This document shows positions 8,591-31,309 of a DNA stretch of 64,000 nt, in pieces (the first letter of the stretch is position 1; every line of letters begins with the position of its first letter). The notes under the pieces are model-generated. The model had not been told where the DNA came from, ran no database searches, and worked only from the letters and a program-made list of their open reading frames with translations. Position numbers and translations under genes: made by a program. The DNA is from Ginglymostoma cirratum (taxonomy: Eukaryota): the NCBI GenBank assembly GCA_024137785.1, contig JAHRHZ010000077.1, forward strand, positions 19,224,239 to 19,288,238, in the 5' to 3' direction.

Positions 8591-8654
8591 TCTGTCACTT
8601 CAGCCAGTGAATGATGGGAAAACGGCTTAGATGGCCATGGCAGGATATGAGGTA

Positions 8655-9506
8655 AAAGGTACTGCAGATGCTGGAGAATCCGAGATAACAAGCATGGGGC
8701 TGGATGAACACAGCAGGTCAAGCAGCATCATAGCCTGCTCCTATGATGCTGCTTGACCTGCAGGATATGAGGTAACAAGCATGGGGCTGGATGAACACAG
8801 CAGGTCAAGCAGCATCATAGGAGCAGGAAAACTTGACGTTTCGGGCCTAAACCCTTCATCAGAAATGGGATGGCATTTTTGCAGGAGGGTGGGTGGGAGG
8901 AGGTGTATTCCAGGTAGCTGTGGGAGTCAGTGGGCTTGAAATGGACATCTGTCTCTAGGTGGTTGCCCGAGATGGAGACAGAGAGGTCCAGGAAGGAGAG
9001 AGAAGTGTTAGAGATGGTCCAGGTGAACTTCAGGTTGGGGTGGAAAGTGTTGGTGAATTGGATGAACTGTTCGAGCTCCTCGTGGGAGCACGAGGCGGCG
9101 CCGATGCAGTCATCAATGTAACGGAGGAAGAGGTGGGGTTTAGGGCCAGTGTAGGTACGGAAGAGGGATTGTTCCACATAACCTACGAAGAGGCAGGCAT
9201 AGCTTGGACCCATGCGGGTACCCATGGCCACACCCTTTGTTTGTAGGAAGTGGGAGGAATTGAAAGAAAAGTTGTTGAGGGTGAGGACGAGTTCGGCTAG
9301 GCGGATGAGGGTGTCGGTGGAGGGGGATTGGTCCGTTCTGCGGGACAGGAAGAAGCGGAGGGCCTTTAGGCCATCAGCATGGGGAATACAGGTATATAGG
9401 GACTGGACGTCCATAGTAAAAATGAGGTGTTGGGGACCTGGGAATTGGAAGTTCTGGAGGAGGTGGAGGGCATGGGTGGTGTCACGGACGTAGGTAGGGA
9501 GTAGCT
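8655..9506 (-). mobile_element. Young, internally deleted Penelope-like retroelement: RT fragment fused to pLTR, 13-bp TSD
   Basis: ORF 8815-9414 is stop-free with PLE RT motifs DVQSLYTCIPH, GVAMGTRMGPSYACLF, RYIDD and FLDLSV. TSD AGGATATGAGGTA at 8642-8654 and 9507-9519. Confidence 0.92.
8831..8866 (-). ncRNA. Minimal type I hammerhead ribozyme motif in PLE pLTR
   Basis: Minus strand reads AUUU-CUGAUGA-A-GGGU-UUAG-GCCC-GAAAC-GUC-AAGU: intact core, stem II, 4-bp stem I and palindromic ACGU stem III. Confidence 0.7.
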
Positions 9507-10199
9507 AGGATATGAGGTAGTTTGGTTTCCAATATTTGTATTGGCATTGCATGTATTGTTCACATGAAAACACCCTACTCCATATTTGGTGTGGAGATCC
9601 AAAATAATTCAGCAAAGTGTGGTTGATTTTTATAGTGAGCAGTGGTAATGATGCGCTTGGTCTAAAACACTTGTTTTAGTATCTATCACGAAAGATATTT
9701 ATATGTATATCTTTGACTGAAATACCGTTGTGAAACGTACACCTTTTAAAAATTTTCAAATGTTTTAACGCTATGGCGTTCAGTCATGAAATGGTCCAGC
9801 ACAAAATCCTGATATAGTTTTAAAAAGGTGGGTCAAAAAACACAGAGCCCCTGATCCCAGTTTTTGTGGCATTGACACAGAAGGGCCAGTTCAACAGAGG
9901 CAAAACTTCTTTGCGCAGACTTGTGAAGCTCTTTTGTCAGGTTTGTGATGAAACAGAAACGTGATCTTTAAAAACTCATTCAGGAAACTTCAAACAAACC
10001 TGAAGATTTTGAATACCTGCATCGGGTCGTATGATCGGTTTCTATGTCATAAAATATAGTGATTATGTTTTGCCAGAGTTTTGTTCCGTCTCCTCTCGAT
10101 TAGCCAAACTCCTCCTCTTTCCTCAGCTACCCTTTAATATCTGACCTTTGTTCAAGCAAGTCTTGTGAAGAACATTCAATATTCTAAATGTGTTCAAGA

Positions 10200-10800
10200 A
10201 ACATTAGCATTTCATATTTAGATTTGCGGAAGTGGCTCCAAAAAAATACAAACACACCCCGACAACTCATCACCTTGCACTTCCTGCCCACACACGGGCA
10301 GCCTTATGTTACAGTGCAGGGGAACCAGCTAACGTCATCCCGGAAGTAATTCGTGGGGCGACGTCGAGAGCAGAGGGTTCTCAGCTTTCAACGGCTTTGG
10401 GGGCGATGGCGACTACTTTCGTCTCGGTGCCTTTGAAGAAATCGTCCGAAGTGGACCTTGCGAAGCCGCTCTCCAAGTTTATCCACGCCACTTACCCGAG
10501 TGGGGAATCACAGGCCGAGTACATCAAGGCGGCTGAAGAGCTGAACAGCCTTCGGAAAAGTGCCGTCTGTCGGGCGCTCGACAAACACGACAGTTCTCTC
10601 GAGATTTTGTTGAGGTAAGTTTGTCCTGGACCGGAGCCTGTGGAAAGTTTTTCTTTAAATGTATGTCTAAGGGAAGGGAGGAAGGTGGGCGAACAAACAG
10701 TGGAGGGGCCCAGATGAGTCTATACGCAGATGGGTCGCTGACTTGTCGTTTGAAATACGCAGTTCCAGCACCGACTCGCCTTTGAGGGCCTTATCCTAGA
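10200..10800 (+). promoter_or_regulatory. PDCD6IP promoter/5'UTR in a CpG-enriched segment with ETS and half-CRE motifs
   Basis: CpG density is visibly higher than in the flanks. GCGGAAGT at 10226-10233; ACGTCA at 10332-10337 next to CCGGAAGT at 10340-10347, just upstream of the ATG. No TATA box seen; TSS not determined. Confidence 0.65.
10406..10614 (+). CDS. PDCD6IP: PDCD6IP/ALIX coding exon 1 (Bro1 domain N-terminus)
   Basis: ATG in strong context (GCGATGG). Encodes MATTFVSVPLKKSSEVDLAKPLSKFIHATYPSGESQAEYIKAAEELNSLRKSAVCRALDKHDSSLEILLR, recognisable as the ALIX N-terminus. Donor AG|GTAAGT at 10614/10615; 209 coding nt, phase 2. Confidence 0.97.
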
Positions 10801-11337
10801 TTGGCCCAATTCATGATTTTGTTAATTTGTTTTCTAAAAATGGAAAGCTTCAAATTAACTTACATCTTTTATCCAGGGAACGGGATCATGCAAGCTTACA
10901 GTAAACGCTAGAAACTTGCCGAATATGTTTTTAAAGTTGTGGTCATCGGTTTGTTCGGCGCACAGCTTACAGTTGCCTTTTCATCGGCATAAACTGGCTG
11001 GACGAAATGGCCTGTTTCTATGTTACATGTCTTGTATGTCCTCATGGGCTAGCTGTTGTAGGTCCTTGTGCTCGATGGCAACTTTAATCGTAGAAAGTAA
11101 TCTTGAGCCGCCTTCTAAATGAATGTTTACGTTCTCGATTTTATGAGTCAGGTTTCGGGGGGAGAAAATGAAGGAGAAGTGGATGTATGTTACTGCCTTG
11201 GAGTTGTAAAATAGTCCGGAAATTAGTCAAGTTTATGCCGAATCTGTCATATTGCGGGCTTTTGACTTTGCAAGCGAGCTCCATTTTCAATATTCAAGCA
11301 TGCCACCTTTTGTAGAGATTTTTTTACTCATAGCCAA

Positions 11338-11705
11338 ACTGTGGATGTTGGAAATCTTAAACAAAGAACAGTAGAAGAGAAACTGTACTCGTGAGGCTGC
11401 AGAGGAAAACAGTTAACGTTTCATGTTTAGTGACCCTTGGAGAAAACTGAAAGTAGCTGGGAAAGAAAGGTACCCTGTATTTATGCTGATGATGGGGTGG
11501 AGAGGAGAGGAGAGTCGAGTCGGGTGGGTTCTGTTTCCATATATTCTACTCTCTTTTTCCTATCCCTCCTTCATCAATTTGAATACCACCATATCCGAAC
11601 TGCTTTCGGTTTTGATGAAGTGTCACGGAACTTGAAACGTTAACCTTGTTTCCTCTTCACAAGCTCTGACTGCCTTGCTGAGCTTCTTTAATTCTTTGTT
11701 TTTCT
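11338..11705. mobile_element. Old inverted pair of pLTRs from a second PLE family
   Basis: AAACAGTTAACGTTTCA (~11407) and TGAAACGTTAACCTTGTTT (~11633) are inverted; degenerate TTGATGAAG...TGAAACGTT core. Confidence 0.6.
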
Positions 11706-12399
11706 ACTTTTTCTTAAAAAGCGCCCCACTTTTCTTGACTAAGTGCCGCAGGATCTTTCACGCACGTCTGGACAGAGGCTGTTAAATCAACTATCTGAAA
11801 GACCAGACTGCTAACGTTGCGTCCCTCTTACCAGTGGAAATGATATACTGAAGTCTTAGCTGGGTTTTGAATCTCGTGATTTTAAAATAAATGCTGTAAT
11901 GGAACAAATCATCAAGGGGTCAAAAATTGATATTTTCTCTGTATAATTACTTCTGGCTGAACCGTATTTATAGATCACTTAGAATATAAAAGATTTGTGA
12001 AGATATAGTGATTTGAATTGACATTTGTCATCTTTCTCATGGGCAGTGGGCAATCCTTTGGTCTTAAATAGACTTTAATAACTACAGAACAAAACTGCAC
12101 TCTTTGTCTTCTTAAGAGCAGCAGGTGCTTTCACAATGGGATGCTGTCAGCAATTGTGGAGATTAACAAGATGTGTGCTGATAATTTAAGTTTGGAGGCC
12201 TGTGATCAGTGTGCATAATGCTGGTGAATATCTAACTCTTTGTTTCATCTTGTAGGTAAATCCACTGTTCGACTTGTATTTTCTGGTTTCATGTTTCAGC
12301 TTCAACTCTGTCCTTGTTGCTCATGATTTTTATTTGACAGTATCTTCTTAAACTTCAGATTCTTTGCCACAAGTTTTGGTATTCCAGTATTGTGTGTCG

Positions 12400-12810
12400 T
12401 AATGCTGACTCAAACTTGAAAGTTCTACAATCAAGTCTCACTTCAAGACTCAAGTGTAAAATCTGGACTGAGATTCCAGTGCGGTACCAAAGGAGTGCTG
12501 CATTATCAGAGTTTCCAGGTGTTTGGATAAGGTGTTATTCAGGGTATCAGCTGCCTTCCCTGATGCAGGTGGAAGATCCTGTGACACAAATTCAAAGCAG
12601 ATAGGGGTTATTTCTTAATCACCATAGTTTTTTTTGAAAAAACAACTATCTACTCCTTGTTGGTTGGGGGTGCGTGGGCTTTGTGCTAAATTGCCTGGTG
12701 TATTTCCTGCCTTCCAATGGCGATAGAACTTCACAATCAATTATGTATTTTGTTTGAAGTGGTTTGGGACCACCAGTGTTTGTGTAAGAAGCTATATGAG
12801 TGCAAATCTG
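12400..12810 (+). mobile_element. Degenerate Deu-domain-like SINE
   Basis: GGAGTGCTGCA...TTTGGATAAG...AAGATCCTGTGACAC...AAATTGCCTG resembles the DeuSINE core as I recall it. Confidence 0.5.
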
Positions 12811-13725
12811 TCTTCCTGGTCCATTATGTCACCTCAGTCAATCATGCCTCATGATTGTCCACTTCAGCCCATAGAATGGAGTTGATTTTTGTTCGAAGAC
12901 CGTGACTGATGTTTTGTGAGTTTCACAACATTAACATCCTGAAGTGAACTTAGAGTTAGTAATTCTACAGCAGGTTTGATCAGTTAGTGTAGTTTGTTGA
13001 TTTGGATTAGGACGCGTCACCTATCACTCAAGGCTAGGATTTTCCCAAGTGGGTGTTGAATAATGTTGTAATCTGTAGCCTGATACCAATAAATCAGAAG
13101 GCAGGAGTTTACGATGGCCTTTTGTGTTCATCTGTTTAAGTTTACTTGGTCAATTTGCAGTAATGTTTATGTATCTTACGGTGTCAATAACAAAGTGGCC
13201 CTAAGGGGCATGGATCCTGAATGAGATTTTGTAGTCATGAGCTGAGGCAGCAATAGTTGTTGTTGAACTTTGAATGTGAACACCTGTGAGATCTCCTTTA
13301 AAGTCTTTTTTTTTTGTGATGGGCATGACCCAATGGATAGTTGATCCTGCAACCCCACTCCTACCAAGACTAGCAATGAATGCCACCCAATCCCCTTGCT
13401 TAATGACTCTCAAGTGCTAGATTTCAAAGTGTGTCAAACTCTGGAGAATTAATAATAAATTGTGTCATACAGGAAACAATACCGATCTATACCCTTGACT
13501 CTGACATGTTATTTATGTTCTCTGGGCTTATGTAGCATGGTCTATTTGTAGTTTTCATCATTGCCTTTACTATGTCAGATTAAAAAGACATTTTTGTAAG
13601 GAGGTTGAGACTGATTGACTGACTATAAATTTAAAACATTCATTCTGTGGACATTTACCTAAATGTATGGGGATAAGGCAGGAAAGTGGAGTTGAGGATT
13701 ATCAAACTAACATGGTCTAATTCTC

Positions 13726-14012
13726 ATAGAATCCCTACAATGTGGAAACAGGCACTTCGGCCCAACAAGTCGACACCGACCCTCGGAGCATCCCATCCCC
13801 CATAACCCACCTAATCTACACATCCCTGAACACGATGGGCAATTTAGCGTGGCCATTTTTGGACTGCATGAGGAAACCGGAGCACCCAGAGGAAACCCAC
13901 GCAGACTCTGAGAACGTGCAAACTCCACGCACAGTGGCCCGAGGGTGGAATTGAACCTGGGTCCCTAGCGCTGTGAGGCAGCAGTGCTAACCACTGAGCC
14001 ACTGTGCTGCCC
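13726..14012 (-). mobile_element. V-domain tRNA-SINE (HE1-like)
   Basis: Minus strand has a tRNA head with A box TGGCTCAGTGG and B box GGTTCAATTCC, V-core GTGGAGTTTGCACGTTCTC...GGGTGCTCCGGTTTCC, and a CR1-like tail. Confidence 0.88.
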
Positions 14013-14431
14013 TAAAGGCATGCTGGGATTGGATCATTGAATGGGAGAGCAGACTCAATGGGTCAAATGGGCTACTTCTGCTCCTTTACGTATTTGCGGT
14101 CAAATATGTTACAGGTTTCATTTTACTGTTGTTACTGAATACATGCACGTAAAAGTGATATTCAATGATTTAAGAACCAAATTGATCATAAGCATAGACT
14201 TTTTAAATGTATGACTCTGTCAGACTACAGGTTTAGAAACAAGTGAATGCTGTTTCTTTTGAGTTGTGGGAATTGAGATTTTTAAAAGGAAGAAGTGGGT
14301 TGATAGTTAAAAGATTCAAACATAAATTTTCAAAACATCCATGGAATGTGCTAGTTGCTGGTTTGGCCAGCATTTATTGTTTGCTCATCCCTGATTGCTC
14401 TGGAGAAGTTGGTGATGAGGAAAAGGATTCT

Positions 14432-14710
14432 GAGATAGTAGGAACTGCAGATGCTGGAGAATCTGAGATAACAAGGTGTGGAGCTGGATGAACACAGCAG
14501 GCCAAGCAGCATCACAGGAGCAGGAAAGCTGACGTTTCGGGCCTAGACCCTTCTTCAGAAATGGAGGAGGGGAAGGGGGTTCTGAAATAAATAGAGAGCG
14601 GGGGGGGCAGAGAGGAGACAGACCGGTCAAAGAGGCGGGGATGGAGCCAGTAAAGGTGAGTGTAGGTGGGGAGGAGAAAGGTCAGCCCAAGGAGGACGGA
14701 CAGGTCAAGT
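14432..14710 (-). mobile_element. 5'-truncated PLE (pyrimidine-rich 3' region plus pLTR with hammerhead core), 14-bp TSD
   Basis: TSD AGGAAAAGGATTCT at 14418-14431 and 14711-14724; minus strand CUGAAGAAGGGUCUAGGCCCGAAACGUC. Confidence 0.88.
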
Positions 14711-16302
14711 AGGAAAAGGATTCTCTTGATTATCAGCTGCAAGTCTCTCTTCATACTCCTCCATTACTTCTCTCGATTTGCTTTTTCACCACCCCATCTG
14801 AACCTTCTATATTCAGCCTGGTCCTCGACTGTATTTTCTACTTGACATCTATTGTGAACACACTGTTTCTTATTTATCATAATTTCTACCTCCCTTTGTT
14901 CAGGAAGCTTTGGGTTTTCTGGCAGTATTGTTGCCTTTTAAGGGAATAGAATTTGACTGTGCCTGCCCCATCCTTTGAAAGTATCCCATTGTTTAGCAAC
15001 TGTTTTGTCTGCCAACCTTTAACTTCAATATTTTCAAACCAGCTCTGTTCTTAGTCCCCTGATATTGGTTTTCTCCCAGTTAATTATTCTTAAGTCTGGA
15101 TTGTTCATTATCCTTTTCCACTGTCACCCTTAGCCTCATGTAGATTCTGTCAATGGCACTTGATGTAACTGGCTCACCTCATTTCAAAGAACCAGCTCCA
15201 GCAGGGCGTCCTTTACTATTGAGTAATTGAGAAGTGTAGGTTTGTGTCTTAGCTTATGTGAATGTTTATTGATGACTTTTAGTTGCAATAATAGTGTAAA
15301 GAATTACACTTTCCTTTTGAGTTGGTCACAGGGGCCTTGGATCTCATTTTAGCAGTTGTAAGCCTATGGAATGATGTGCCAGCAAAAGCAGTTTGTGATA
15401 CATCAATGGGCTTCTTTTCAATGATGCCTGCATTGAGGGTTAGGAAGTCAATTTAAGATTAAAAATACCAGGTGATCAACTCTATAGAGCTGAATGGGTT
15501 GTGTGCTAATCAGACTGAAAAGGTCATCAATGGAATGCAACTAATTAGCTTCGCAAAGTATGTTGTTACTTAATACAATATTCTAAAATTTCTATCATTT
15601 GACTTAAACCATTTGGTTTATTTGATCCCTTTGCTTGATGTTAAATAGATTTGGCAAGTTGTATTTTACTTTATAGATCATGCATCCTTTTAAACTTGTT
15701 TTCCTGTTTAATATCTTCATTCGTGTGGCCTGACATCAGTTGTTGTGATATTGCAAAAGTTTCCGAGGAATGGTTTCTCTCCACACCCACTGCCTGCCTC
15801 CCCAACCAGCTGACTTCTAATAAAGTGCATTCAGGATTGGAAACTGTAGAATATCTCAGTCTACACCTTGTCCAGAACTCCTGGTGCACCATTTAATGAT
15901 TGAATTGTTTGACTCCTATTTAAGTGTTGAACAGAAAGTACTGACCTTGCTCATTAAATGTATTTCTTTTGATGAGACGGGTAGAAAAGGAGAAATATTT
16001 TGAATTGCAGGATATCATTGGAAATGTGGTCATCTAGTTGGTGACAAAAGGTAATTCCGGTGGTAATTTCCTTGCTGTCTTATAATGACAACAATTTTAA
16101 AAGCAGGATCATCGTCAGCTACTCTTAGTTGAGAATTTCCCACCCACTCTGGCATTGATGATAAGGAATTAGTATTTCAAAAAGGCACAGTATCTCTGCT
16201 TTATTCTCTGTGAATCAAGTAATATTTTATTTAATGGAGACTAACACTTGAGTGATCGTTATTTGCTCATTAAATAATTTGCTTCTACGTGTTGTTCTCT
16301 TT

Positions 16303-18470
16303 TAATTCATGGAATGTGAACTTTGCCAGCTTTAATTATCCATCGCTAATTGCCCTGGAAAAGTTGTGATGAGCTGCTGTCTTGAGCTGTTGCAGTCCAT
16401 TTCATGTAAGCACACGCAAGACTGTAGAGAACACTCGAGGATTTTAACCTAGGAACACTGAAGAGATGACGCAGTTCCACAGCAAGATGGAGTGGCTTGG
16501 AAGGGAATTTACAGGTAGTGGTGTTGCCATCTGCTGCTGTTATTTTTTTGGGATGGTAATAGTTAGGGGTTTAAGAGGTGCTATCTCAGGGGCCTTGGTG
16601 AGTTCTTGTAGATGTGCATAGGTGATGGAGGAAGTGAATATTTCTGGATGGACTACTTTCTTCCGGTTGCTGTCAAACTTTTGAGAATTGGTAGAATGGT
16701 ACTCATCCATCTAAGTTAACGATATTCCATCACACTCGTGACTTGTCTTGAAGATTGAGGACAGACTTTGGAGAATTGAGGTGAGTTACTTGCTACAGGC
16801 ATATGACCTGCTCTTATAGCCACAGTTCTTGTATGACTCATCTAGATTACCTTCTGGTCAGTGGGATTCCCTAGGATGCTGATAATGGGGGATTTGTCAA
16901 AGGGGCAGTTGTTCCGTTTAATATTGGAGATGTTCATTGCCTGGAACTTGAGGTGTAAATGTTACTTGCCACTTGTCAGTCCATGCCTGAATTTTGTCGA
17001 AACCTTGCAGCATTTAGACACTGCTGCACTCAGTATCTGAGGAATTGGAAATTATTTTGAACATTCATCAATGAACATCCTCACTCTTGACCTGAATTTT
17101 TATGGCTTTGTTAAGAAGCAGTTGAAGATGGTTTTACCTAGGACACGGCCAGGAGGCCCAGGTTGAAGTCCTGCTTGCTGCAGAAGTGTGTAATAACTCT
17201 TAGGAATAGATAGATTAGAAAATATCTGCCCCAAGAGGCACTGGCAATGATGTTCTGGAGCTGACGTAACTGACCTCCAGTAGTCATAACCATTTTACTT
17301 TGTGCCAGGTATGACTCCAACTAGCGGAGAGTTTTACCTGATTCTCATTGACTTCAGTTTTGCAAGAACTCTTGTGCCCTACTCGGTCTTTTGCAGCCTT
17401 TGTCAAATGCAGTGACTCTTGGCTGGCATCTGGAACTCCAGTCCTTTACTTCATATTTGAACTAAGGCTGTAAGCAGGTCAAAGGTTGAGTGGGCTCTGG
17501 CAGGACTCAAACTAAGTGTCATGAGCAGATTATTGCTGAGAAAGCAGCCCCAGATAGCACTGTTGATGACACTTTCTATCCCTTTTACTGATGGTGGAGA
17601 ATAGACTGGGGCGGTATTTGGCCAGGTTGGATTTGCCATGCTTCCTGTGTACATGCCTGGGCAGTTTTCCATGATAACAAGCATGGGGCTGGATGAACAC
17701 AGCAGGTCAAGCAGCATCATAGGAGCAGGAAAACTTGACGTTTCAGGCGTCAACCCTTCATCAGAAATGGGGGAGGGGAAGAGGGTTCTGAAATAAGTAG
17801 GGAGAGAGGGGGAGGCGGATAGGGGATGGATAGAGAGGAGAGGATAGGTGGAGAGGAGGCAGACAAGTCGAAGAGGCGGGGATGGAGCCTGTGAAGGTGA
17901 GTGTAGGTATGGGGGTAGGGAGGAGATAGGTCAGTCCAGGGAGGACGGACAGGTCAAGGGGGCGGGATGTTTTCCTGCTCCTATGATGCTGCTTGACCTG
18001 CTGTGTTCATCCAGCCCCATGCTTGTTATCTCGGATTCTCTAGCATCTGCAGTACCTTTTATCTCTGGGCAATTTTCCATGTTGTGTAGATGCCTGTGAT
18101 GTAGCTGTGCTGGAACAGCTTGGCCAGGAGAGCAGCAAGTTGTGGAGCTCACACACTCAGTACTATTGCTGGACTGTTGTCAAAACTCAATGTCTTTGCA
18201 GTTATCCAGTGCCTTCAACCATTTCTTGACGTTGCATGGAGTGAATTGAATTGGTTGAAGACCGGCATGTGATGCTGGGGATCTCAGAAAAACGCAGAGA
18301 TGGATTATCAATTTGCATTTCTGGCTGAGGATTGTTGCAAATGCTTCAGCCTCCTGTTTTGATGTTTTGGGCTCCCCATCACTGAATTTGAAAATATTTA
18401 TGGAGCCCCCTTCTCCAGTGAGTTGTTTAATTGTCCAGTACCTTAGGAGCATGACTGCAGAGCTTGGATC
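16303..18470 (-). mobile_element. Degenerate CR1/L2-group LINE (family B), interrupted by a PLE
   Basis: RT remnants VKGIESVINSAI..FLSNNLL..HSTFDLLTALVQ and LQPIQFTPCNVKKWLKALD; 3' tail shared with SINE family B. Confidence 0.75.
17674..18064. mobile_element. Young PLE insertion with inverted pLTR arms, 17-bp TSD
   Basis: TSD CTGGGCA(G/A)TTTTCCATG at 17657-17673 and 18065-18081; arms are reverse complements; hammerhead core on the minus strand at 17733-17768. Confidence 0.9.
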
Positions 18471-18477
18471 CAATCAG

Positions 18478-18567
18478 AATGAAGGATCTAGGCCTGAAAC
18501 ATCAAGCTTTCCTGCTCCTATGATGCTGCTTGGCCTGCTGCGTTCATCCAGCTCTACACCTTGTTAA
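18478..18567 (+). mobile_element. PLE pLTR fragment
   Basis: ATGAAGGATCTAGGCCTGAAACATCAAGCTTTCCTGCTCC...TTGTTA. Confidence 0.8.
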
Positions 18568-18569
18568 CC

Positions 18570-20275
18570 AACTGTGAATGTTTGTTTCTACAGGTATTTA
18601 AAGAGAAGATGAATCATGAAAACTAATCTAGGTCCCTTTCTATCAGAAATGCAGGAATTTATAACAAGGAACGAAGAAATGGTTTACAAACTAAATTTAA
18701 ATGTTACTTCTTCCTTTACAAAGGAGAACACGAATGACGCACCAACAATGATGGGGAACACAAGATTTAGTGAGATGGAGGAGGAACTGAAGCAGTTTTT
18801 CATTAGTAGAGAAATAATATTGAGGAAATCAGGTTTGAAAGCCAATAAATCCCCAGGGCCTGATAATATAATCCCAGAGTACGTAAGAATATGGCCCTAG
18901 AAATAGTGGACGTATTAGTCATCTTCCAAGATACTTTAGACTCTGGAATACATCCTGTAGGTTGGATGATAGTTAATGCAACCCACTATTTTAAGAAGGG
19001 AGCTAGAGAAGAAGCAGGGAATTACAGAACAGTTAGAAAACAGTAGCAAAATCAGAATAAAAGCATGCATTTACAAAAGGGAAATCATGCTTGACAAATC
19101 TTCCTCTGAGATTCTTCAAGGATGCAACCAGTAGACTTGATTGGCAGAGCCAGTCAATGTGGTTTATTTGGACTTTCAGAACATTTTTTTTTTGTCCCAC
19201 GTGAAAGATGAGTGTACAAAATTAAAGTGCATTGGATTGGGGGTAGTGTATTGAGATGGATAGAAAATTATTTAGTAGATAAACAGTGGGAATAAATGGG
19301 TCTTTTTTTCTGAATGGCAGGAAGTGACAAATGGATACTGCAGGGATTGGTACTAGGACCCAAGCTCTTAACAATATTTGTTAATGATGCAGATGAGGGA
19401 ACTAAATGTAATATCTCAATTTGCAGATGATTCAAAGCTGGTTGGAAAACTGTACTGTGACGAGGCTACAGAGATGTTAGTGATTTGGATGGGCTGAATG
19501 AGTGGTCAAATGCATGGTTGATTCAATATAATGTGAATAGAAGTGAGGTTAGCCTCTTTTTGGTAGCAAAAATTAGGCCAATATTATGTCGCAATAAATT
19601 GAGAGAGGGAAATGTTCAATGAGACCTGGGTGTCCTTGTGCAGCAGTTGCTGAAAGTAAACATACAGGTACAGCAGGCAGTAAAAAGACAAAAACTGTAC
19701 ATTGACGGGCATAATGAGAGGATTCCAGTTCAGGAGCAGCGATGCCTTAACTGCAATTATACAGGGCATTAGTAAGACCACACCTGGAATATTGTGTGCC
19801 GTTTTGGTCTCTTTATCTGAGGAAAGATGTTCTTGATTTGGAGAAGTGCAGCAAATGTTTACCAAATTGGTTCCTGGGATGGCAGGACTTGCATATGAAG
19901 AGAGTTTTGGGTTGGTTAGGGTTGTATTCACTGGAATTTAGAAGAATGAGGGAGGATCTCCTAGAAACCTATAAAATTCTAACAATATTAGACAGATTAA
20001 ATGCTGGAAGAACGTTTCCAATTCTGGTAAGCCCAGAATCAAAGATCATATTTTAAGGGTAAGGGGTAAATGTTTTTAGGATTGTGATGAGAAATTTCTT
20101 CACCCAGAAAATGGTGAGCCTGTGGAATTCATGATCACAGAAAGTGAGGGCAAAGCATCGTTTTCAAGAACGAGGAAGATATAGCTCGTGGGGGGTGGGC
20201 CACGATCATGTTGAATGTCGGAGCAAGCTTGAAGAGTTGATTGGCCTACTCCTGCTCCGATCTTCTGTGTTTCTG
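18570..20275 (+). mobile_element. Degenerate CR1-type LINE (RT through 3'UTR)
   Basis: LKANKSPGPD, VYLDFQ, ISICRxF/FADD-like region, LYSLEFRRMREDLLETYKIL and a CR1 3' tail. Confidence 0.85.
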
Positions 20276-20368
20276 TGAGCACTTTGCAAGGTCACAGGGT
20301 TGCATTTGACCTTTTCGTTTCTGGTACCAGACCTGCTGGTTCTTCCAGTTTAATTCCTTCATTGAGAC

Positions 20369-20580
20369 ATGATGTGGAGATGCCGGCGTTGGACTGGGTG
20401 GACGAGGCCAGAAATCTCACAACACCAGGTTACAGTCCAACAGGTTTATTTGACAACACAAGCTTTTGGAGCCTCTGTCTTCCTTTTAGGTGTTAGTGAG
20501 AGAGGTAGTATCAGGCACAGCATTTATAAGTAAAAGTCAAAGTTTCACACTATTGATGAGCATGTACTAAACGAATCTTG
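20369..20580 (-). mobile_element. pLTR of a third PLE family (degenerate)
   Basis: ATGATGTGGAGATGCCGGCGTTGGACTGGG...ACAACACCAGGTTACAGTCCAACAGGTTTATTTG; decayed hammerhead-like segment at ~20460-20492. Confidence 0.6.
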
Positions 20581-21289
20581 AGACAAGCAGCTCTGCTGTT
20601 ACTGAGGGCAGTTGGGAATGACCTACATAGCATGGCCAGAACAGGTAAGTACAGCAGATTGATTGCTTTCATTATTAAAGATAGTAATGAACTAGATGGA
20701 ATTTTATGACAATAGTTGCATAGTTTTCATTAGATTTTTAATGCTAGAGTTATTTAATTGAATTCAGATTCCATTGCATGACGTGATGGAATCAAGCCAC
20801 GTCCCTAGAGAGTGATCTAGGCCTCTGGATTACAAGTCATGCGACTTCACCACCTTCCCTTTTTAAAATGAGTAGAATTTCAGTGCTCTGTGCAGGCACT
20901 GCCCGAACAGTTGTTTTTAAACAGACTTTGACTTGTAGTGTTTTATATATTGAAAATAACACCAGTAATATAATTTTGCAAGCTCAATTACAAGCATCTT
21001 GTTATCTCATTATAGCAACTCGTTTTGTTGTAAAATTGTTGCAGTTCAAGCCTGTAGCAATTTGGTCAGTTTTAACTCAGTTTGGTCACATAAAGTATAC
21101 TTGTTTGTAATAAAGAATTGAACATTGATTGTAAAGGACTGTTAAACTATGTTGTAGGCTGAGAGACCGATTTGTTTTTAAATCGGTAAGAGAATGAAGG
21201 ATTATGGGGATGAGGTAGGAAGTGGAGCTGAGCATTATCAGAATGCCTTGATCTCAAAGTATACTAGCCTTTTCTCCTACATCGTACGG

Positions 21290-22205
21290 TCAAAGGACAT
21301 CTCTGCAGGAGTTTAAGGATAGCATCCTGAGGATAGCATCAACCATCTTCACTATATAAACAATTGTCTTTGTAATAATGTTAAAGCTCTTGTTGTAGCC
21401 TTCTACCTCTGGACCTCAGAGGCCTGGCGTCAAGCTCCAGATATGTATTGTAATTAAATATATCTATAATACCAGAGGTTGGATTGTTCACAGTTGGTTG
21501 CACAACGTTCAGCAGTATTCTCCATATCCGGATGTTCAAGCAGTTATTGTCCAAATGAATTAGTATCTGGATTTCAAGTTTGGACTAATGTGGCAAGTTA
21601 TATTCATGCCATACAATTCCAAGAAGTGAACATCTCCCAGAAAACAGGAATCTAACATTTCTTCTTGACACTTCATGCTATTATTATTGCTAAATCCTCC
21701 CATGATCAGTATCTTAGGGAGTACCACAGATCAGAAACCGAACTCTACTATCTGCAAATGGTTTGGTTTTAAAAAAAAATGAGGTAACAAGGCTTGGAAT
21801 TCAGTGGTAACTCCCATCCTGACTCCTCAAAGCCTGTCACCCAAGTGCATGGCATAAATTTAGGAGTATGATGTAGTAATATACTTGCCTGAATGTTGTT
21901 CAGACAGTATTCAATCATGAAGCTTGACACCACCCAATACAAAGAGGCCCATTTGATTTGCACTACATTGAACATTCACTTACTCCCTGCCACACTGATG
22001 CACGGTAGTGGAACTCGCGAAGGCTTCTTGGACAGCATCTTCCAAATCCAGAGTTCCTACCATCTGGCCAAGGTTGGCAGAAATATAAGACGACACCATT
22101 TGCAAGTTCCCCTCCCAGCCACACCCAGTTCTTTCTTGGTACCACCTTGAGAACAGTTGACTTGGTCTAGCCAGCAGCATCCATACGCTACGAATGTATT
22201 TTTTT
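21290..22205 (+). mobile_element. Degenerate family-B LINE, 3' part
   Basis: Plus-strand counterpart of the 16303-18470 element: TGGCAAGT..ATTCATGCCA and AAGCTTGACACCACCCAATACAAAG. Confidence 0.65.
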
Positions 22206-22754
22206 TAAAATGAAAGCACTCTGGTTTATTTTGTTATGGTATTGTAATGTTCGTTACCAACTCTCCTGCATTCAAGAGCTTTTGCTTATTGGACCTTCCC
22301 TCCCCAGCTTAGTTGATACTGATTTCCTTTTGTACTGTATATTTTCTTGTCTGTTAATGTGCTTTGCTTTTGTGTAACTTTAGACTTTCGATACCTGATT
22401 GTGCTGTGGAGCCTGTTATACTGCACATCTCTTGTAAACTAGTGACTCATAACTGATCTGTGGAGTTACCTTGATCTAACACTCAACAATGCTCAGTTGT
22501 GTGGTAGTGAGAATTGATAACAAAATTTTGAATAATTGCTCAATTGGAGATAAACTTTCAGTGTTTTGTGCAAAGTTTTTGGCATAATTGTTGTGAGATA
22601 CTTTTCTACATGTAGAATTGTACAGGTGAATCTGTTGTTTTCATATCTTTTTAAAAATGTCATTCCAGTTTTTCTACATACATTGAAATAAGGGGCAAAT
22701 GATACTTATGCTGAAACTAGCCAATTAAACTCTTCATTTGATCATGTGATTCAA

Positions 22755-24490
22755 ATGTTTCTGTCAAGCCAGCATGTGTTGCCTAGCCCTAATTTTCTTT
22801 GAGTGGGTAGTTAATCATGAGCTGCCACCTTGTAATGCTGCGTTCCTTGTGGTGTAGGTAAACCCATACAGCATTTTGACTGATGTTTGCAGAATTTTAA
22901 TGTGGAAAAAATAGTGATCTATTTCCAAGTTGGTTTGATTATATGATTTGGAAAGTAGGTTACAGGTGGTTATGTTCCCCATGCGTTTGTCACTGTTGGC
23001 CTTGCAGATTGTAGAGGGCAGGAATTTGGAACGTACTGTCAAAGGCCATTGCCTGCTGCTGCAGTGCGTCTTGTAGTTGGCCCATATTGCTGTCATGATG
23101 TGAAGGTTTAACACCAAGTTTGGGTTGCCAATCAAGTGAGCTGCTTAGTCGTGATGAGATTCTTGTGTGACAGAGTAGCACTGACTTTGGAAAGCCAGGT
23201 GAGTCCCCTTCAGAGCCTCTGACTTGCTCTTGGAGCTACAGTATTTTACGTGGCCAGTCAAGTTGAGTTCCTTGTCAGTGGTGACCTCAAAGACGTGATA
23301 TGGGCTTCAGTGATACCAGAACTGTTAGATGGCAGAAAGGTATAGTTAGACCCTCTCTTCTTGGAGATTATCTTGTGACACAAATGTTATTTCCCATTTA
23401 TCAACCCAAGTCTGAATGTTGGCTCATTATCTGAGGATTTGATAGATACCATTCATACTACAATCATAAACATCGGGAAGATGTTAATGAGGCAACTGAA
23501 GGTGATCAGGCTCAGAGTACTTTGTACAGTTCTAGTCACCCTGCTTCAGAAGGATTTTTATAAATTGGAGAGGACTCCGAAGAGATTTACCAGGATGTTG
23601 CTGGGACTGGAAGTTTTGAGTGAGAGAGATGGGCTCAGACTTATTTCACTGGGGTGTAGCAGGTTGAGGGGTGAGCTTCTCGGTCTGTAAAATCATGAGG
23701 CGCGTAGATGAATAGCAGAGATAGTAGGAACTGCTGATGCTGGAGTCTGAGATAACAAGGTGTAGAGCTGAATGAACACAGCAGGCCAGGCAGCATTCGA
23801 GAAGCAGGAAAGCTGACGTTTTGTATCTCGACCCTTCAGAAAAGCTGAATAGCAAGGGTCTTTTCCCATCGTTGGGGGACTTCAAAACCAGGGACCATAT
23901 TTTTAAGGTGAGAGGAGAGAGATTTAAAGACATGAAGGGCAATTTTTTTTTTTTTCTTTTTTAAGACAGTGGTTTGTATGTGGAATGAACTGCCAGAGGA
24001 AGTGGGGAATGCAGGTTCATTATGGACCAAATGCAGGGAATTGCGACTAGTTTCAGTTTGGTTTGGGAAAATGGTCAGCGTGGACTAGTTGGACTGAAGG
24101 GCCTATTTCCATGCTGTATGACTCTGACTCTATGATCTTGCCCTGAGGAACTTCTGCAGCGATGATTATCAACAGACATGGTTGACCACCTTTCTTCTGT
24201 TTAGTATGCATCCAGTGAAATGATTTTCTTGCTTCTCATTGACACTGACACTGATTTTTGTCTGTTTCCTTGATGATGCCACACGTCATCCATGTGAGCT
24301 CGCTGTCAAAAATGAACACTTTCCTCACTTCTGGAATTTGATTCTTTTGTCTGTGTTTGGGCTAAGTCTGTGCTGAGGTCTGGTGTCGAGTGGTCCTACT
24401 GGACCATGAATTGATCTTCGTTGAATGGGTTATTAGTGAATAAGTGCCACTGGAAGCATTATTGATGAAACCTTCCAGTAGTTTTAGATG
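22755..24490 (-). mobile_element. Degenerate family-B LINE with a nested CR1 3' end (~23510-24135, +) that itself contains a PLE pLTR (23718-23845)
   Basis: Three nested layers; the pLTR is flanked by 9-bp TSD TGAATAGCA at 23709-23717 and 23846-23854. Confidence 0.75.
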
Positions 24491-24871
24491 CAATGGCTAT
24501 CGGTTAGAATGGTTTTGCAACATAAGAACATAAAGTTATAGCATGGGGGAGGCCATTTGATGCATTGTGTTGTGGCAACTGAAAATTAGGTATCTGCTTA
24601 ATCCTTCTTTCCAGCCTTGGTCTGTAGCTCTGTTACTTAGAGCACTCGCCTAACCAGTACTTTTCAGAATGTGATGAGGGTTCTCATCTCTACCACCATT
24701 TTTGCAACAATGAGTTGCGTAGCCCTGGTGCCTTCTGTGTGAAAGGATTCCTCTTAACTTCTCTGCCATCCTTCATACACTTGGTACAACTTAGTTCAAT
24801 GCCCCGCAAGTCATTGAATTTGCTGCGAAAATACGTCCTTTCTTACCACACTACATAGGCAATTCAAATTT

Positions 24872-25212
24872 TAGAATCGTAGAATCCCTAAAGTGCAGAA
24901 AGAAACCTTTCGGCCCATTGAGTCTGCACTGACTCTTGGAGCATCCCACCCAAACCCAGCATCCCCAGTCCTATCTTGTAACCCTGCGTTTTACCATGGC
25001 TAACCCACATATCCTTAGACTCTATGGAGCAATTTGGCATGACCAATCTACTTAACCTGCACAAATTTGGACTGAGGAAACTGGAGCACCTGGCAGAAAC
25101 CCACACAGACATAGGGACAACATGCAAACTCCACACACCACCCAAGGCTGGAATTGAACCTGGGTCCCTGGTGCTGCGAGGCAGCAGTGCTAATCGTTGA
25201 GCCACCATGCCG
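24872..25212 (-). mobile_element. V-domain tRNA-SINE (HE1-like)
   Basis: Same architecture as 13726-14012. Confidence 0.85.
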
Positions 25213-27049
25213 CTGTATTTTATAATGCACCTCCCTCGGCTGCCAAATATGAAGACCTTGGATTTAAGCTTTCCCTATGGTTAAGTATATGTTCCTGGAA
25301 AAACAAAACCTCCACTGTATCTCCAAAGTGTAGTTGCACCCTTCCTGTAAAGTATTGTGTTCTAGTTTTGACGTTACTACTATTTTATGCTATTGTAGCG
25401 TAGCTTTTTTGCCCTTATATTCTGTCCCAAAAGAGTGATGAAAAGTGCTAGCTTCAAGGACCTGTAGACGCGTACTTGAAGATGTCTCTATCTTTTAGAT
25501 TTTCTTGTATCCCTACTATTTCTTGGACAAACCCTTGGTCTTAAACCATTGCCCTCAAACTTAAATATGGGCAATTAGACGTGTGTTTAAAAAAAAAAAG
25601 CTGCCTGAAACTGGCAGGGGAAAGTCAGTGGATAAGTACTGGTAGGCATTTCAGATATTTCATTAAACTTGGCAAAGCTTTTTCCTGACAAAAAGGACTC
25701 AATGGAAATTTAACAAAATAGATACAACTTTTTGTGTAGTAACTAACAGTTGTTCTGACAGTGCTAAAACAGCCAACAGCATTATGCATATAATTTAGTT
25801 TGTTACAGAAAGTGTGAAACAGCTTACAGAAAGGGAAGGCAGATCAGTCAGATGTCAAACTCTGTTTAAATCAATCACTTACAAAGAAATACATTTGAAG
25901 CCCTAGAGGGAGGTTAAGGGGTTGTGCTCAAATCTGAAAAATAAATTACTGGAGATTTTGTGTAAAAGACAAAGGTGTCTTTGTTCCTTGGAATAGAGAT
26001 TTCTGTAATGGGGCACAACAGTGTTGAAGAACAATCTTCAGAGAGCTCAACAAGTCTCCAGTATGCCAGTGGTACAGTGAATAGAGAAATTTAAGATGGT
26101 TTTAAGGAAATATGATAGTGGGAAAGTAATGGATTTGGAATGAGAAAGGAAGCGCAGAATCAAAAAAGTGAACAGAAATAAATAGTAAGAAAACATTATC
26201 ACAGGGAAAAGAAGACCCTTTGAGGTTGAGAGGCACAGAGGGAATTAGATTTGTGTAAACTCTTTCACACCCAGAAGTATCTGAAAGCCCTTTGTAATCC
26301 ATAAAGTACTCATCAAGTGGAACATTAAAGTCAAAGTAAATTTCTTTCTTCCATATGTCAAAACAAAATGCTGTTGACTTTAATTCGTGTACTTGCATCA
26401 CTGTTGTTTGTGTCAAATTAAAGCTATGTAAACTTTAATTTCAGACGTTGTGTAAAAACGATTTTGGTTCATATTTAACCTTAAGAATTGAACTGTGTTG
26501 CTCCTGTGTGAAGAAAATGGATTTTTGTTTTATACCTTAATGGAATAGACACACTTGAGATTCTAAAAGGTTACTGAAAATTTTAGCGTTAATATTTCTT
26601 CAATTAAATCAACCACTTAAGCAGTGCAATTTGTTAATTTCTCCTACACCTGTGGTATCTTTGTAAAATGTTTCACCCACATATTTCTGTGGGTTGCATC
26701 CACAGAGTCTTGATATAATAACATGGGTGATCAAGAGCCAAATAGTAAAATTGAAAGCTATGGGATACGAGGGGCGGCAATGGTATGAATACTAAATTTT
26801 CTGACCGATAGAAAATGGAAAGTTGTACTGGCTGTTTCCCTGATGGTAGGGAAGTTACGTAGTAGTTAATGCACTGAAAATTCACTGTTTTCAATTTGCC
26901 TTAATATTTGGACTTGAGGAGTAGGAGCAATTTCAAAATTCACATAATATGAAACCCTGAGAGAGAGTACATTAGTGAGTATGGTTAGAATCCTTTTGAA
27001 TAGGACTTAGGCTGATGGAATGGGGAGATATGAATTTCAAAATACTTGC

Positions 27050-28280
27050 GATGTATTCGGGAAGAAAGAATGCAAAGAGTAAATAAATGGGAAAACTTTA
27101 AAGGGAAGATGCTGGAGGAGATGTCTTGGGTTCTTATGTTCAAATATTTGAAAATGACAGGATAGATTAACAAAGCGGTTAATAAAGTGCATTAGGTACT
27201 AAGGGCTTAGTTTGGTGCACTGCTGATGTCCGTGCCACTGGATCAGGAGGCCCATTAAGTGGCTAATTGGGAGGAAACAGCAAGTGGAGATGAGGGGGTG
27301 TCTTTCAGGTTGGTTACATGTGATCAGTGGGATTAGTATGGGGCCACAACTGTTTACAATTTAATGACTTGGAGGAAAGAATTCAAATGTACTGTAACCA
27401 AATTTGAAGATGACCCAATAAGTAGCAGATTTGTGAGAGGGATACAAACAGCTCACATAGAGGTATTGATAGGTTAGGTAAATTGACAGAAAGTTGGCAA
27501 AACCAGCACAATATAAGAAAATGTGAAGTCTTTCTTTTTGGAAAAAGAGAACAAAAGAACAGTATTTAAAAGGAGAAATCCTGCAGAAAGCTGCAACACA
27601 GTGTGACTTGGGATACTTGTGTGTGAAACACAAAGCTAGTCCGTGGGTGTAGCATGTAATCAGGAAGATTAATGGAATGTTTGCCCTTTTTCATAAGGGT
27701 TGGAGTTTGAGTAGAGAAGTCTTATTGCAACTGTACAGTATGCTGGTGAGACCACATCTGGAGTACTGAGCAGTTTTGGCCCCCTTTTTAAGGAAAGTGG
27801 TCATTTCATTTGAGGCAATTCTGAGAAGGTTCACAAAGATGATTCCTGGTACGGAGGGTTTTTTTTTTTGAGCAAAGGCTAAATAGATTGGGGCTCTACT
27901 CGCTGGAATTTAGCTTCGAGAGCCTATAAGAAGCCCTTAAGATACTTCAGGCGCTTGAGAAGGTAAATGCTGAGAGGATGTTTCTCCTCATTCTAGAGTC
28001 TACGACCAGAGAGCATAGTCTCAGAATAAAGACAGAAATTGGGAGGAATTTCTTCTGAGGATTGAGTGTCTTTGGAACTCCTTATCACAGAGCTGTGGAG
28101 GCAGTTATTATGTATGTTTAAGGCTGAGATAGATATCTTTGATCACCTCTCTGATCAAAAATTTGTGGGGATAACGCAGGAAAGTGGATATGAGAAATTT
28201 CAGATCAGACACGATCCTATTGAATGCTGGAGTAAACTAAAGGCATACTCCTATTCCTGTTTCTTCTCGCCATGGGATCT
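27050..28280 (+). mobile_element. Degenerate CR1-type LINE
   Basis: CTGGTGAGACCACATCTGGAGTACTG (LVRPHLEY) and a CR1 3'UTR. Confidence 0.8.
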
Positions 28281-29747
28281 TACTATAACTGAAGTTTAGT
28301 GCCATGTATACTGAGTGGACAGTCTGGTCAAGTCTGAGATGTGCTTTGGTTGTAGGTGTTATTCTTCAAGTGTAATTTACACTTAATATCAACAGCAATT
28401 TACCTCTTGCTTCACGGCTATTTATATTGATGTTGGTTTGATTGCTCTCACACAAACAATAAAAAGTGAACCTTTGTTCTCATGGGGTCTTTAATAAATT
28501 TGTTCTCTTTTGTTGGTCTCCCTGTGAATTGTAACACTAAACACTATTGTTGAAAGCAGTTCCTGTGTTCGATGGTCCAAAAACGGGTCCAATAACTGAA
28601 TTCTATCTCTGATTCTTTGGGAATAAATTTTTGTCACCTTTGCTCCATCAACATGTCTTCAGTTATCTTGCAACCTAGTCAATGTAGAACACCACATCAC
28701 AAATCTCTAAATATGCTTTGTATATCTTTGAGTTTTGTACACACCACCTATTTATAGTTTTTTGTTCAGCCTGATCCAACTGTGTGCAGAGACTTTATTA
28801 TACCTGGAACTAGTCAGATTTGAAGAACGAATATTGTATCTCAGACGGAGTTTCCTGAGCCGTTATATTGTTTCAGAGCTCTGAAATTATTCAATTGAGA
28901 TTCTAAATCCTTTTCTTTGATTTTAGCTGCAGATTTTCGTCTGATTAGCAGCTCCCAAACACACTTAAGTTCTGTGGGCTAAGTCTTAACCAGAAGCATT
29001 GATCTGGAACCTCCTCAACTATGCTAGTGAGATTCTTGATGGCATAGATTTACTAGCACATCGTTGTGTGGTTCTGGACAGTCACACACAGCTGCAGCAA
29101 CCTTTACATTTGTTGTGCGCTCCTATTGTACAGACACCACTAGATGATCTGAGTCGTTGTTTCACTTAAAACCTGAAGGTTCGATGTCCCTTTCAGTTAG
29201 GGTCTGACAGAAAAGATATGAGCTTTCATACCAAGGATTCTATTGCAGGGTATTTCTTTAATTAATGAATGGCAATGAAAATATTCAACAATTAATTTGT
29301 AGCTAGCATTCATTAATTTGGATAATGATAGTTGCGAAACATCTTGCTGTATTCATCTGTGTGTGGCTGCAATCAAACAAACATAACGTTACCTGAAGAC
29401 TTTAGATTTCTGTGAATTGCTTGAAGCACTGTTACATTTGGGGTTTTTTTTAACTCTTTTTTATTTCAAGTAGTGCTACTTTGAGAAGCTTTCTGTGAAG
29501 TCCTAGTGCATAAAGTTACAATTGATCAATATTAGGCTTCCAATTTAAAGGCTTTATCCAACTGTCTTGGATACACTAAACTGATGTTTTGGATAAATCT
29601 TAGAGCAAGGCCTCATCTGCTGTTTTTAGTATAAAAGATAACATTGTACTGTTCAATAAGGCTGGGAACAATTACATCTCAAAATAGCTGAACGTATACT
29701 GAGCATGCAAAATCTGTTTTGTCCTGACCGATTTGCTTCTCTTTCAG

Positions 29748-29802
29748 GTATTATGATCAACTGTGTGCCCTTGAGCCCAAGTTTCCATTCTCAGAAAATC
29801 AG
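29748..29802 (+). CDS. PDCD6IP: PDCD6IP coding exon 2
   Basis: Acceptor tttgcttctctttcag|G; encodes (R)YYDQLCALEPKFPFSENQ; donor CAG|GTATCT; 55 nt, in frame with exon 1. Confidence 0.96.
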
Positions 29803-29899
29803 GTATCTAAGTCAATCTGTTTAAGTAGCTGTTTTGTACTGACCTTTACAATCATTTCTTTACTGCATATTTGGAGTACTTCGAAGCAGAATTTACTAT

Positions 29900-30230
29900 G
29901 TTGCCTACCTCCTTGTAGTGGTGTTCCTCCTCTGCTTGACATAAAAGACCCCATTGCCTGATTGAAAGAGAAGCAGGCAGATTTTGCCATCGAGCTGGTG
30001 AACATTTATCTGTTGACACTGCTGAAGACCTGAAAAAACTGTAAACTCAGGATAAAATGCACTGGCATAATTGAGCCAGAACTTCTTGTTTTGGGTCCTT
30101 GTTATTTGTAAGTTGGCTGCTGTACTGGCCTGCAGGATAACAAGCAATAATTTTTAAAAGTCACTTAGTGGCCTTGAAGTACATTAGAATTATTCATGGT
30201 TGTGAAAAGCCTTTTAAAAATGTAATGTAT
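29900..30230 (+). mobile_element. Highly degenerate Deu-domain-like SINE
   Basis: ATAAAAGACCCCATTGC...GAAAGAGAAGCAGG...AACATTTATC...AAGTTGGCTGCTG. Confidence 0.45.
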
Positions 30231-30874
30231 AGTTGCTGAAAAGAGTCATTATCTCCTTCCCTTAGAATTCATGGAGATACCTTATGTCTCTCAAAACCTT
30301 CCGTCTGTAGTCTTCAGAATTTATTTCTCGTGTTTCTGTTGCTCTTGTTATCCTTGGTATTAGAATTTGATACTTGGATAGTAATTTACTTTTCTCTGTA
30401 TCCCTAAAAAATGCAAAGAAATATTTAATGAGAAAAGGTTTCAGTTTAATACTTAAATATATGAATGTCATATATTAATTGGGTCTTCCTGTGATGTTAA
30501 AGCATTAAACCTATAGGCTTGGAGAAATAGCCAATTATCATGTTGATTTTTAATTTTTTTAAATAGCTGAATGTTAGCTAGCATTACCCAGTTTGGCATT
30601 GGCACCCATTTTATGGATCCTCAGCTATTCCCATGAGAATCGAGAGACTTGAGAATAGGATGGGAAAGTGGATTTGAGGTAGAAGACCAGGCATCATTCT
30701 ACTGAATGGCATGATTGGACCTACTCGTGCTCCTATTTCCTACATTCTTTTCGGGCACTCGGGTGCAAACTTACAGCTTTATTAAATTTACAGAAGATGA
30801 ACCCACAATATGAGATAACAAGGCGTGGGGCTGGATGAACACAGCAGGCCAAGCAGCATCATAGGAGCAGGAAA

Positions 30875-31274
30875 NNNNNNNNNNNNNNNNNNNNNNNNNN
30901 NNNNNNNNNNNNNNNNNNNNNNNNNNNNNNNNNNNNNNNNNNNNNNNNNNNNNNNNNNNNNNNNNNNNNNNNNNNNNNNNNNNNNNNNNNNNNNNNNNNN
31001 NNNNNNNNNNNNNNNNNNNNNNNNNNNNNNNNNNNNNNNNNNNNNNNNNNNNNNNNNNNNNNNNNNNNNNNNNNNNNNNNNNNNNNNNNNNNNNNNNNNN
31101 NNNNNNNNNNNNNNNNNNNNNNNNNNNNNNNNNNNNNNNNNNNNNNNNNNNNNNNNNNNNNNNNNNNNNNNNNNNNNNNNNNNNNNNNNNNNNNNNNNNN
31201 NNNNNNNNNNNNNNNNNNNNNNNNNNNNNNNNNNNNNNNNNNNNNNNNNNNNNNNNNNNNNNNNNNNNNNNNNN
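30875..31274. other. Assembly gap (400 N)
   Basis: Run of N. Confidence 1.
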
Positions 31275-31309
31275 TTTCTGATGAAGGGTCTCGGCCCGAA
31301 ACGTCAAGC
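31275..31309 (+). ncRNA. Minimal hammerhead ribozyme motif, sense to the PDCD6IP pre-mRNA
   Basis: UUU-CUGAUGA-A-GGGU-CUCG-GCCC-GAAAC-GUC-AAG. Confidence 0.68.

Follow-up and report, generated by a model that had tools for sequence, protein, structure and literature searches.

A minimal hammerhead motif at the ends of an abundant Penelope-like element in the shark Ginglymostoma cirratum, and copies that tend to begin just before it

The stretch of DNA analysed here (the window) comprises 64,000 nt of the shark Ginglymostoma cirratum (assembly GCA_024137785.1, contig JAHRHZ010000077.1, positions 19,224,239 to 19,288,238 of the forward strand). Most of it is covered by a gene with a BRO1 domain, presumably PDCD6IP/ALIX, which extends along the + strand from about 10289 past 63155. 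The window has four minimal type I hammerhead ribozyme cores that are intact (the 8862, 14558, 17764 and 31278 copies, Table 1), each at the position named in a preliminary description of this sequence, and all six decayed or truncated copies named there are present as well. Each intact core is laid out as CTGAnGA, an extra A, a stem II of four pairs with a 4-nt loop, and GAAACGTC, and the conserved nucleotides C3-U4-G5-A6-N7-G8-A9 ... G12-A13-A14-A15.1, U16.1-H17 are complete in all four. Stem III is the palindrome ACGT and has no loop, as had been described. Positions are numbered here from the first base after GUC, the predicted cut (+1), so that C3 is -27; in the 8862 copy this cut falls between 8835 and 8834. 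The 14558 copy has a stem I of merely two contiguous pairs, and the 17764 core displays a G10.1-U11.1 pair and an altered loop. With a loose core pattern the window yields 19 matches, against 7.39 +/- 2.75 in shuffled sequences, none of 100 shuffles reaching 19. An Rfam scan of the window gave no hammerhead even at E<=5, just hairpin-driven miRNA matches below gathering. Insertions in the window are flanked by 12-14-bp target duplications.

The motifs are the ends of a Penelope-like element (PLE), as the preliminary description had proposed. A reverse transcriptase (RT) fragment adjoins the 8862 hammerhead, to which it is fused through an internal deletion of about 1,110 nt at a CCCATT microhomology; the deleted part is present in other copies. 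The order of the unit is hammerhead, a tail of about 100 nt, an ATG at +139, an open reading frame (ORF) of 1,037 codons for RT and a GIY-YIG endonuclease (EN), a pyrimidine-rich 3′ region, and again a hammerhead and tail. Locus L057 displays the ATG at +139 and the 1,037-codon ORF, and the tail runs on into the ORF at 1,769 places of the same genome. The single complete unit among 12 stretches inspected (L341) is a partial tandem in which two pseudo-long terminal repeats (pLTRs) flank the ORF, with cores at 880 and 4402, 3,522 nt apart; both pLTRs thus carry a core. The ORF (P0001) has RVT_1 (561-704) and GIY-YIG (935-1012) domains above gathering scores, with a CX4CXXC linker (CNRRKCYTC) between RT and EN. 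By its single RT, zinc-finger linker and GIY-YIG ORF the element would be an EN-bearing (EN+) PLE of the Neptune type; this linker type is shared by Neptune and Nematis, which a CX2-5CxxC linker between RT and EN is reported to mark (PMC8557442). Among named proteins the best matches, at 80% and 77%, belong to Chiloscyllium punctatum, and a PDB sequence search with the ORF gave 0 matches.

The family is young, since the RT peptide is 100% identical in all 150 matches scored (149 besides that of the window itself) of 57,657 candidates. Very long "open frames" among the RT matches were discarded as runs of N. The element family is also found in contigs of four of four putative RNA runs of a related organism, and no recurring splice joint was seen among the matches listed in those contigs. 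We put at roughly 0.85 the probability that the motifs are pLTR ends of a young and very abundant PLE, that they are predicted to cut only as dimers, and that the dispersed copies are probably inert remnants of insertion.

The motif class is known, and the shark copies were correctly recognised as members of it. Metazoan PLE minimal hammerhead ribozymes (min-HHRs), together with the dimer model, the additional nucleotide and the palindrome of stem III, were published by Cervera and De la Pena (2014, PMC4209133; this and the other papers are cited here from their accessible parts), who reported them in fish Xena, Poseidon and Neptune. The motifs described here are alike in being type I without loop 3, in the palindrome at 15.2-16.2, the extra nucleotide between 9 and 10.1, the G10.1-C11.1 pair and the short helix I; they are also alike in lying in both pLTRs, in occurring mainly as solo copies genome-wide and in forming several families per genome. 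They differ in a helix II of 4-5 bp and in copy number (see below), and sharks are not named in the accessible text. The shared features and PMC4209133 support the earlier reading as a minimal type I hammerhead that would need a dimer. PLE hammerheads are reported to require a dimer and to have low activity (PMC4209133; review PMC6765202). The suggestion of an under-described system is not supported, since PMC4209133 had already described the class, with Neptune elements of fish and solo copies throughout the genome. The element further resembles EN+ Neptune-type PLEs (PMC8557442, PMC3846280) in its RT, CX2-5CxxC linker and C-terminal GIY-YIG, and in the partial tandems, inverted 5′-truncated copies, optional 30-40-bp tail, microhomology deletions and target duplications, of which partial tandems, inverted 5′ copies and a tail of the 30-40-bp type are all present among its copies.

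Base pairs were counted by parsing; a MAFFT alignment of 16 copies shifted family E by one column. The counts are of de-duplicated copies from all fetched loci, a set in which the patterns searched for are over-represented, and they thus describe families and not frequencies. The genome pattern scan and covariation check that had been proposed bear out the fold, in that stems I, II and III all covary across three families. Between families stem I varies as UUU/AAG, GUU/AAC and CAC/GUG, stem II as GGGU/GCCC, GGGUC/GACCC and GGAG/CUCC, and stem III is ACGU in families A-D and AGCU in family E, both palindromes. The first pair of stem I is U-A in 129 of 131 copies of family A and C-G in 14 of 18 of family E; the second is U-A against A-U (13 of 18 in E); the third is U-G in A (123/131), G-C in D (15/25) and C-G in E (13/18). 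The third pair of stem II changes from G-C to A-U in 13 of the 18 family E copies. In all 131 family A copies the extra nucleotide that follows position 9 is an A; their 10.1-11.1 pair is G-C in 120 and G-T in 10. It should be noted that family E (L321-L340) combines the AGCU palindrome with the CAC/GUG stem I.

Within the inserted copies the motif is no better kept than its surroundings. Over 50 copies selected by alignment (from an even sample of 100 evenly spaced 10-kb stretches and the window) divergence is 3.1% in the core and 3.3% in the tail once four sites diagnostic of subfamilies are set aside (6.1% if they are kept); in the ACGT palindrome the CpG is altered at its C in 8 and at its G in 16 of the 50. 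Thus the master elements were selected for a hammerhead fold, because the helices covary between families; the inserted copies are not, because their core diverges like the tail and the palindrome CpG is often lost.

A scan of the 4.36-Gb assembly gave 72,071 matches to the exact family core, against 0 for a reversed control, 133,973 to a generic ACGT core (control 485) and 7,458 to the AGCT-palindrome core of family E (control 61). In PMC4209133, with that study's own descriptor, about 4,000 copies were reported in coelacanth and about 9,000 in Xenopus. In the even sample the family makes up 4.1%, with 74 tail matches; 551 kb of this 1 Mb is readable and 45% reads N, so that estimates per Mb are uncertain. 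As regards count, the very large genomic load claimed in the preliminary description holds. An active load is not borne out, given the neutral decay, only 67 close same-strand pairs at the spacing searched and, in the window, a single intact core on the sense strand of the BRO1-domain gene. The load is large yet mostly inert, because the inserted copies undergo neutral decay and, with few exceptions, have no partner on the same strand.

These 67 are same-strand core pairs 250-280 nt apart, the one spacing range searched, and many of them are [-30..+220-267][-30..tail] units whose junctions differ. Six loci (L200, L179, L173, L269, L289 and L284) display short tandems in which two or three hammerheads follow one another at 250-280 nt, built from the first 220-270 nt of the element; these are possibly births of retrozymes. 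Non-LTR retrozymes derived from PLE ends, one chondrichthyan included, have been described (Li et al. 2026, 10.64898/2026.07.22.740005). The shark genome resembles these in its two-hammerhead tandems of 250-280 nt from PLE ends. Unlike them, the shark tandems have two or three units and junctions that differ from one to the next, as in independent template jumps, with no amplified family in evidence, and none lies in the window, where no tandem of units each with a complete hammerhead was found. In the head-to-head pairs the two cores are on opposite strands. Runs of 100 or 400 N recur at the centre of head-to-head pairs or within young copies at many loci, including 30875-31274 of the window.

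The copies of the element tend to begin right before the motif and rarely at the predicted cut site. Homology is lost at -31 (non-A) in 15,451 of 64,578 cores (24%), where the first 100 broken cores have T in 79, C in 13 and G in 8. At -32 a base other than C is found in 5,899 of the 49,127 remaining cores (G 58, A 27 and T 15 in the first 100), and homology extends to -35 in just 35,229. At the comparison positions, 383 (-1) and 1,037 (0) of 67,153 tail anchors differ, or 0.6-1.5%, these being anchors of the youngest subfamily only. The break sits 3-4 nt ahead of the core, often with an additional T. Among 89 tail matches of the even sample and the window, with hairpin arms counted separately, the copy start falls within -34..-29 in 25, upstream of that range in another 25, within -27..-10 in 22 and within 0..+15 in 17. 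At loci picked only by a tail-ORF junction, 10 of 28 template jumps depart from -30..-33 (one duplicate row and the rows of the spacing search are left out of the count). Of 20 family E copies inspected, 11 are without the upstream region; 9 of these 11 retain only CAC/CGC and 7 are preceded by T, so that the break is in the same register despite CAC in place of TTT. Start positions of family D were excluded, as they are biased by a reference that has no upstream region. A splice acceptor as source of the -30 end was ruled out, there being no AG at that place.

An untemplated base at a fixed register would fit run-off of RT at a physical RNA end, and the pattern of 5′ breaks suggests an element RNA whose 5′ end is at stem I and which is for the most part copied without having been cut. 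A literature search turned up no paper that pointed to counts of PLE hammerheads in sharks or to 5′ ends located at stem I; it did not extend to subscription papers and supplements, the latter of which may list shark motifs. The sharp break at the stem I edge is not mentioned for EN+ PLEs in the accessible text of PMC8557442 and PMC3846280. What is new in these ends is a hint, and the end map is a useful lead.

The course of events inferred from these data is as follows. The element RNA would start at the 5′ edge of stem I, an end that may be set by a promoter start at the purine -31, for which the odds are not far short of even, or by exonuclease trimming back to the stem, for which they are clearly poorer. 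Reverse transcription would begin within the tail, as for the anole element Poseidon_Ac (PAc), and the RT would run off the RNA 5′ end, adding an untemplated base. The cDNA would then be inserted directly, giving solo and hairpin copies of about 97 or 133 bp, or alternatively would jump to another template position, giving partial tandems. Within a single pLTR-ORF-pLTR transcript, the two cores would be brought together by their ACGU palindromes, probably aided by the element protein, and GUC|A cutting would take place only in a small share of the copied RNAs; a cut would strip the first 31 nt off the message. On the most far-reaching reading, the hammerhead would be the very 5′ end of the message in unrelated families, a strong-stop cDNA like that of retroviruses, spanning tail to stem I, would be inserted or jump, and the small peak at GUC|A would reflect real but rare germ-line self-cleavage, the ribozyme being a self-decapping switch and not a maker of unit-length RNA. 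This last reading is a tentative one, which we would sooner expect to be revised than upheld.

The anole element offers the nearest parallel. Its hammerhead is reported to cut only with protein, uncut RNA is the chief substrate, and two RT starts set the tail (Frangieh 2024, PMC11167929). In the shark element, too, uncut RNA would be the main substrate, and RT would start at two internal sites past the hammerhead that fix the tail: its 3′ copy ends gather at +64-66 and +99-103, both at TATCTC, which match the 30-40-bp tail and the two internal starts of PAc. The PAc ORF, however, begins inside stem II and that of the shark element 139 nt past the cut site, and Poseidon is without the zinc-finger linker that is present here.

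A quite different role is given to the motif by the model, put forward in PMC4209133, of efficient cutting in vivo that defines a unit-length, circularisable RNA; an RT that crosses the cut seamlessly would leave the genome under-recording such cutting. Three-mismatch start counts, of 67,153 anchors, do show a small excess at the cut, with 398 at +1 and 375 at +2 against 108 (0), 125 (+3) and 131 (-6), and 19 of 30 inspected loci with a base other than C at 0 are true junctions at +1; the template jump of L185 also leaves from exactly +1. With A insertions and deletions removed and pattern acceptance allowed for, +1 and +2 each come to about 1% of copies, a share 2-3 times that at the other positions. 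However this is to be set against 24% at -30, the count at +2 equals that at +1 in height, both are inflated by A insertions and deletions (about 17 and 29 of the first 100) and confounded by hairpin microhomologies, and a cut RNA could not yield the many copies ending at -30 with an intact core. The 3,438 matches with a base other than A at +1 are mostly a G subfamily variant and were not used as a junction count; this sub-lineage (GUC|G) still has stem I closed at its base by a U-G pair. That the +1 excess is a true cleavage footprint may be so, at somewhat under even odds, and efficient cleavage as a whole is unlikely. The preferred reading of an RNA that begins at stem I also competes with a break made on DNA, either through nicking by the GIY-YIG endonuclease, which could favour ATT in its own pLTR, or through AT-rich microhomology that stacks junctions at the TTT run. 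The anole element is reported to be cleaved at 5′-ATT-3′ of its ORF-pLTR junction (PMC11167929), and T/A microhomology with the target duplication is seen at several junctions. Yet family E breaks in the same register with CAC, and microhomology alone is expected to give a pile-up of about 1.1-1.5-fold, far from the loss of 24% at -31 against 0.6-1.5% at -1 and 0; either DNA-level route is improbable.

The dispersed copies might instead be a host-relevant load of active self-cleaving RNAs that cut pre-mRNAs, for example, or act in trans. The 133,973 generic cores, the presence of the family in RNA-run contigs of the related organism and one intact sense copy within the BRO1-domain gene speak for it. 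Most window copies do sit in introns of this gene. However three of the four intact cores are off its sense strand (the 8862 core lies upstream on the - strand, and the 14558 and 17764 cores are antisense), 31278 has no intact partner in the window, and the remaining sense-strand copies are without CUGANGA or without the palindrome. The core is no more conserved than the tail, a 4-bp helix III and a 2-4-bp helix I offer little stability in trans, and head-to-head pairs fold upon themselves, all of which makes such a load very improbable.

Several points count against the conclusions drawn above. Stem I has only two contiguous pairs in subfamilies B and C, in which the third pair is formed in 1 of 28 and 0 of 6. 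In nearest-neighbour folding, which leaves tertiary energy outside the model, the active form of the 8862 monomer is at -4.0 kcal/mol against -9.3 for an alternative fold, and that of the dimer at -6.3 against -28.8 for a stem II duplex. Cleavage was seen in one of nine Xenopus dimers (Li et al. 2026, bioRxiv 10.64898/2026.07.22.740005). The Penelope hammerhead of D. virilis lies after an intron and not at the start (PMC4209133, PMC2377424). As to the start site, its evidence consists entirely of DNA junctions, the commonest 5′ end is U(-30) and not the purine, and the G before ATTT (58 of the first 100) often comes from an inverted arm, a target duplication or a re-primed TGA, so that it is no firm sign of a cap having been copied.

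The insertions of the window are collected in Table 1. A second, older hammerhead family (D), overlooked in the preliminary description, is found at 31708-31802 and 11610-11685, with weaker matches; it is characterised by stem I AGUU/AACU, a 5-bp stem II and U17. Family D copies, hairpins among them, lie at 11398-11685, 31708-31802 and 43336-43557. Elsewhere, 40002-41045 (-) encodes a 347-aa RT C-terminal fragment with a weak RVT_1 match, which we take to be a CR1/L2-type LINE, with related fragments at 209-637 and 1424-1804. A 217-aa frame at 6634-7287 (-) has no Pfam match and presumably resembles part of an L1/Tx1-type ORF2.

Table 1. Copies of the Penelope-like element and of a second hammerhead family in the window
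Feature	Position	Strand	Details
Tail of further copy, interrupted by window edge	1..95	+	
Truncated copy from -17	4378..4460	-	without CUGANGA; palindrome ACAT
Tail, short inverted stub and second tail of the 8862 insertion	8649..8834	-	13-bp target duplication TACCTCATATCCT on both sides
Intact hammerhead	8831..8866, core 8835-8862	-	stem I AUUU/AAGU, stem II GGGU/GCCC, stem III ACGU
PLE reverse transcriptase fragment, 214 aa	8863..9504	-	RVT_1 E 6.4e-7; 99.4% to natural full copy
5′-truncated pLTR copy, older subfamily	14429..14709, intact core 14531-14558	-	~12-bp target duplication
Head-to-head pair	17673..18067	-	pLTR copy with core 17737-17764 (-); inverted tail 17969-18067 (+) from +3; ~14-bp target duplication
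Truncated copy from -24	18479..18566	+	without C3-G5; palindrome ACAT
Decayed copy, broken core	23713..23838	-	
Head-to-head pair flanking 400-N stretch (30875-31274)	30812..31408	+	inverted tail 30812-30874; direct copy from -30 (31275), intact core 31278-31305 (+); ~13-bp target duplication
Decayed copy of second family D	31704..31802	+	92.6% to natural copy L127, E 8e-36
Truncated copy from -18	37223..37349	+	without CUGANGA
Head-to-head hairpin, two decayed copies	54176..54381	.	arms -12..+64 and -29..+101
Old head-to-head hairpin, broken core	62076..62222	.	

A vertebrate genome is thus found to hold hammerheads in numbers more than 10 times those reported for Xenopus. Rfam overlooks all of them, which bears on annotation more than on host biology. 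The job of the hammerhead in endonuclease-bearing PLEs has been called unclear (PMC8557442). The tens of thousands of young copies in this shark give a testable prediction, namely that the element RNA would begin at -31/-30 and would seldom be cut.

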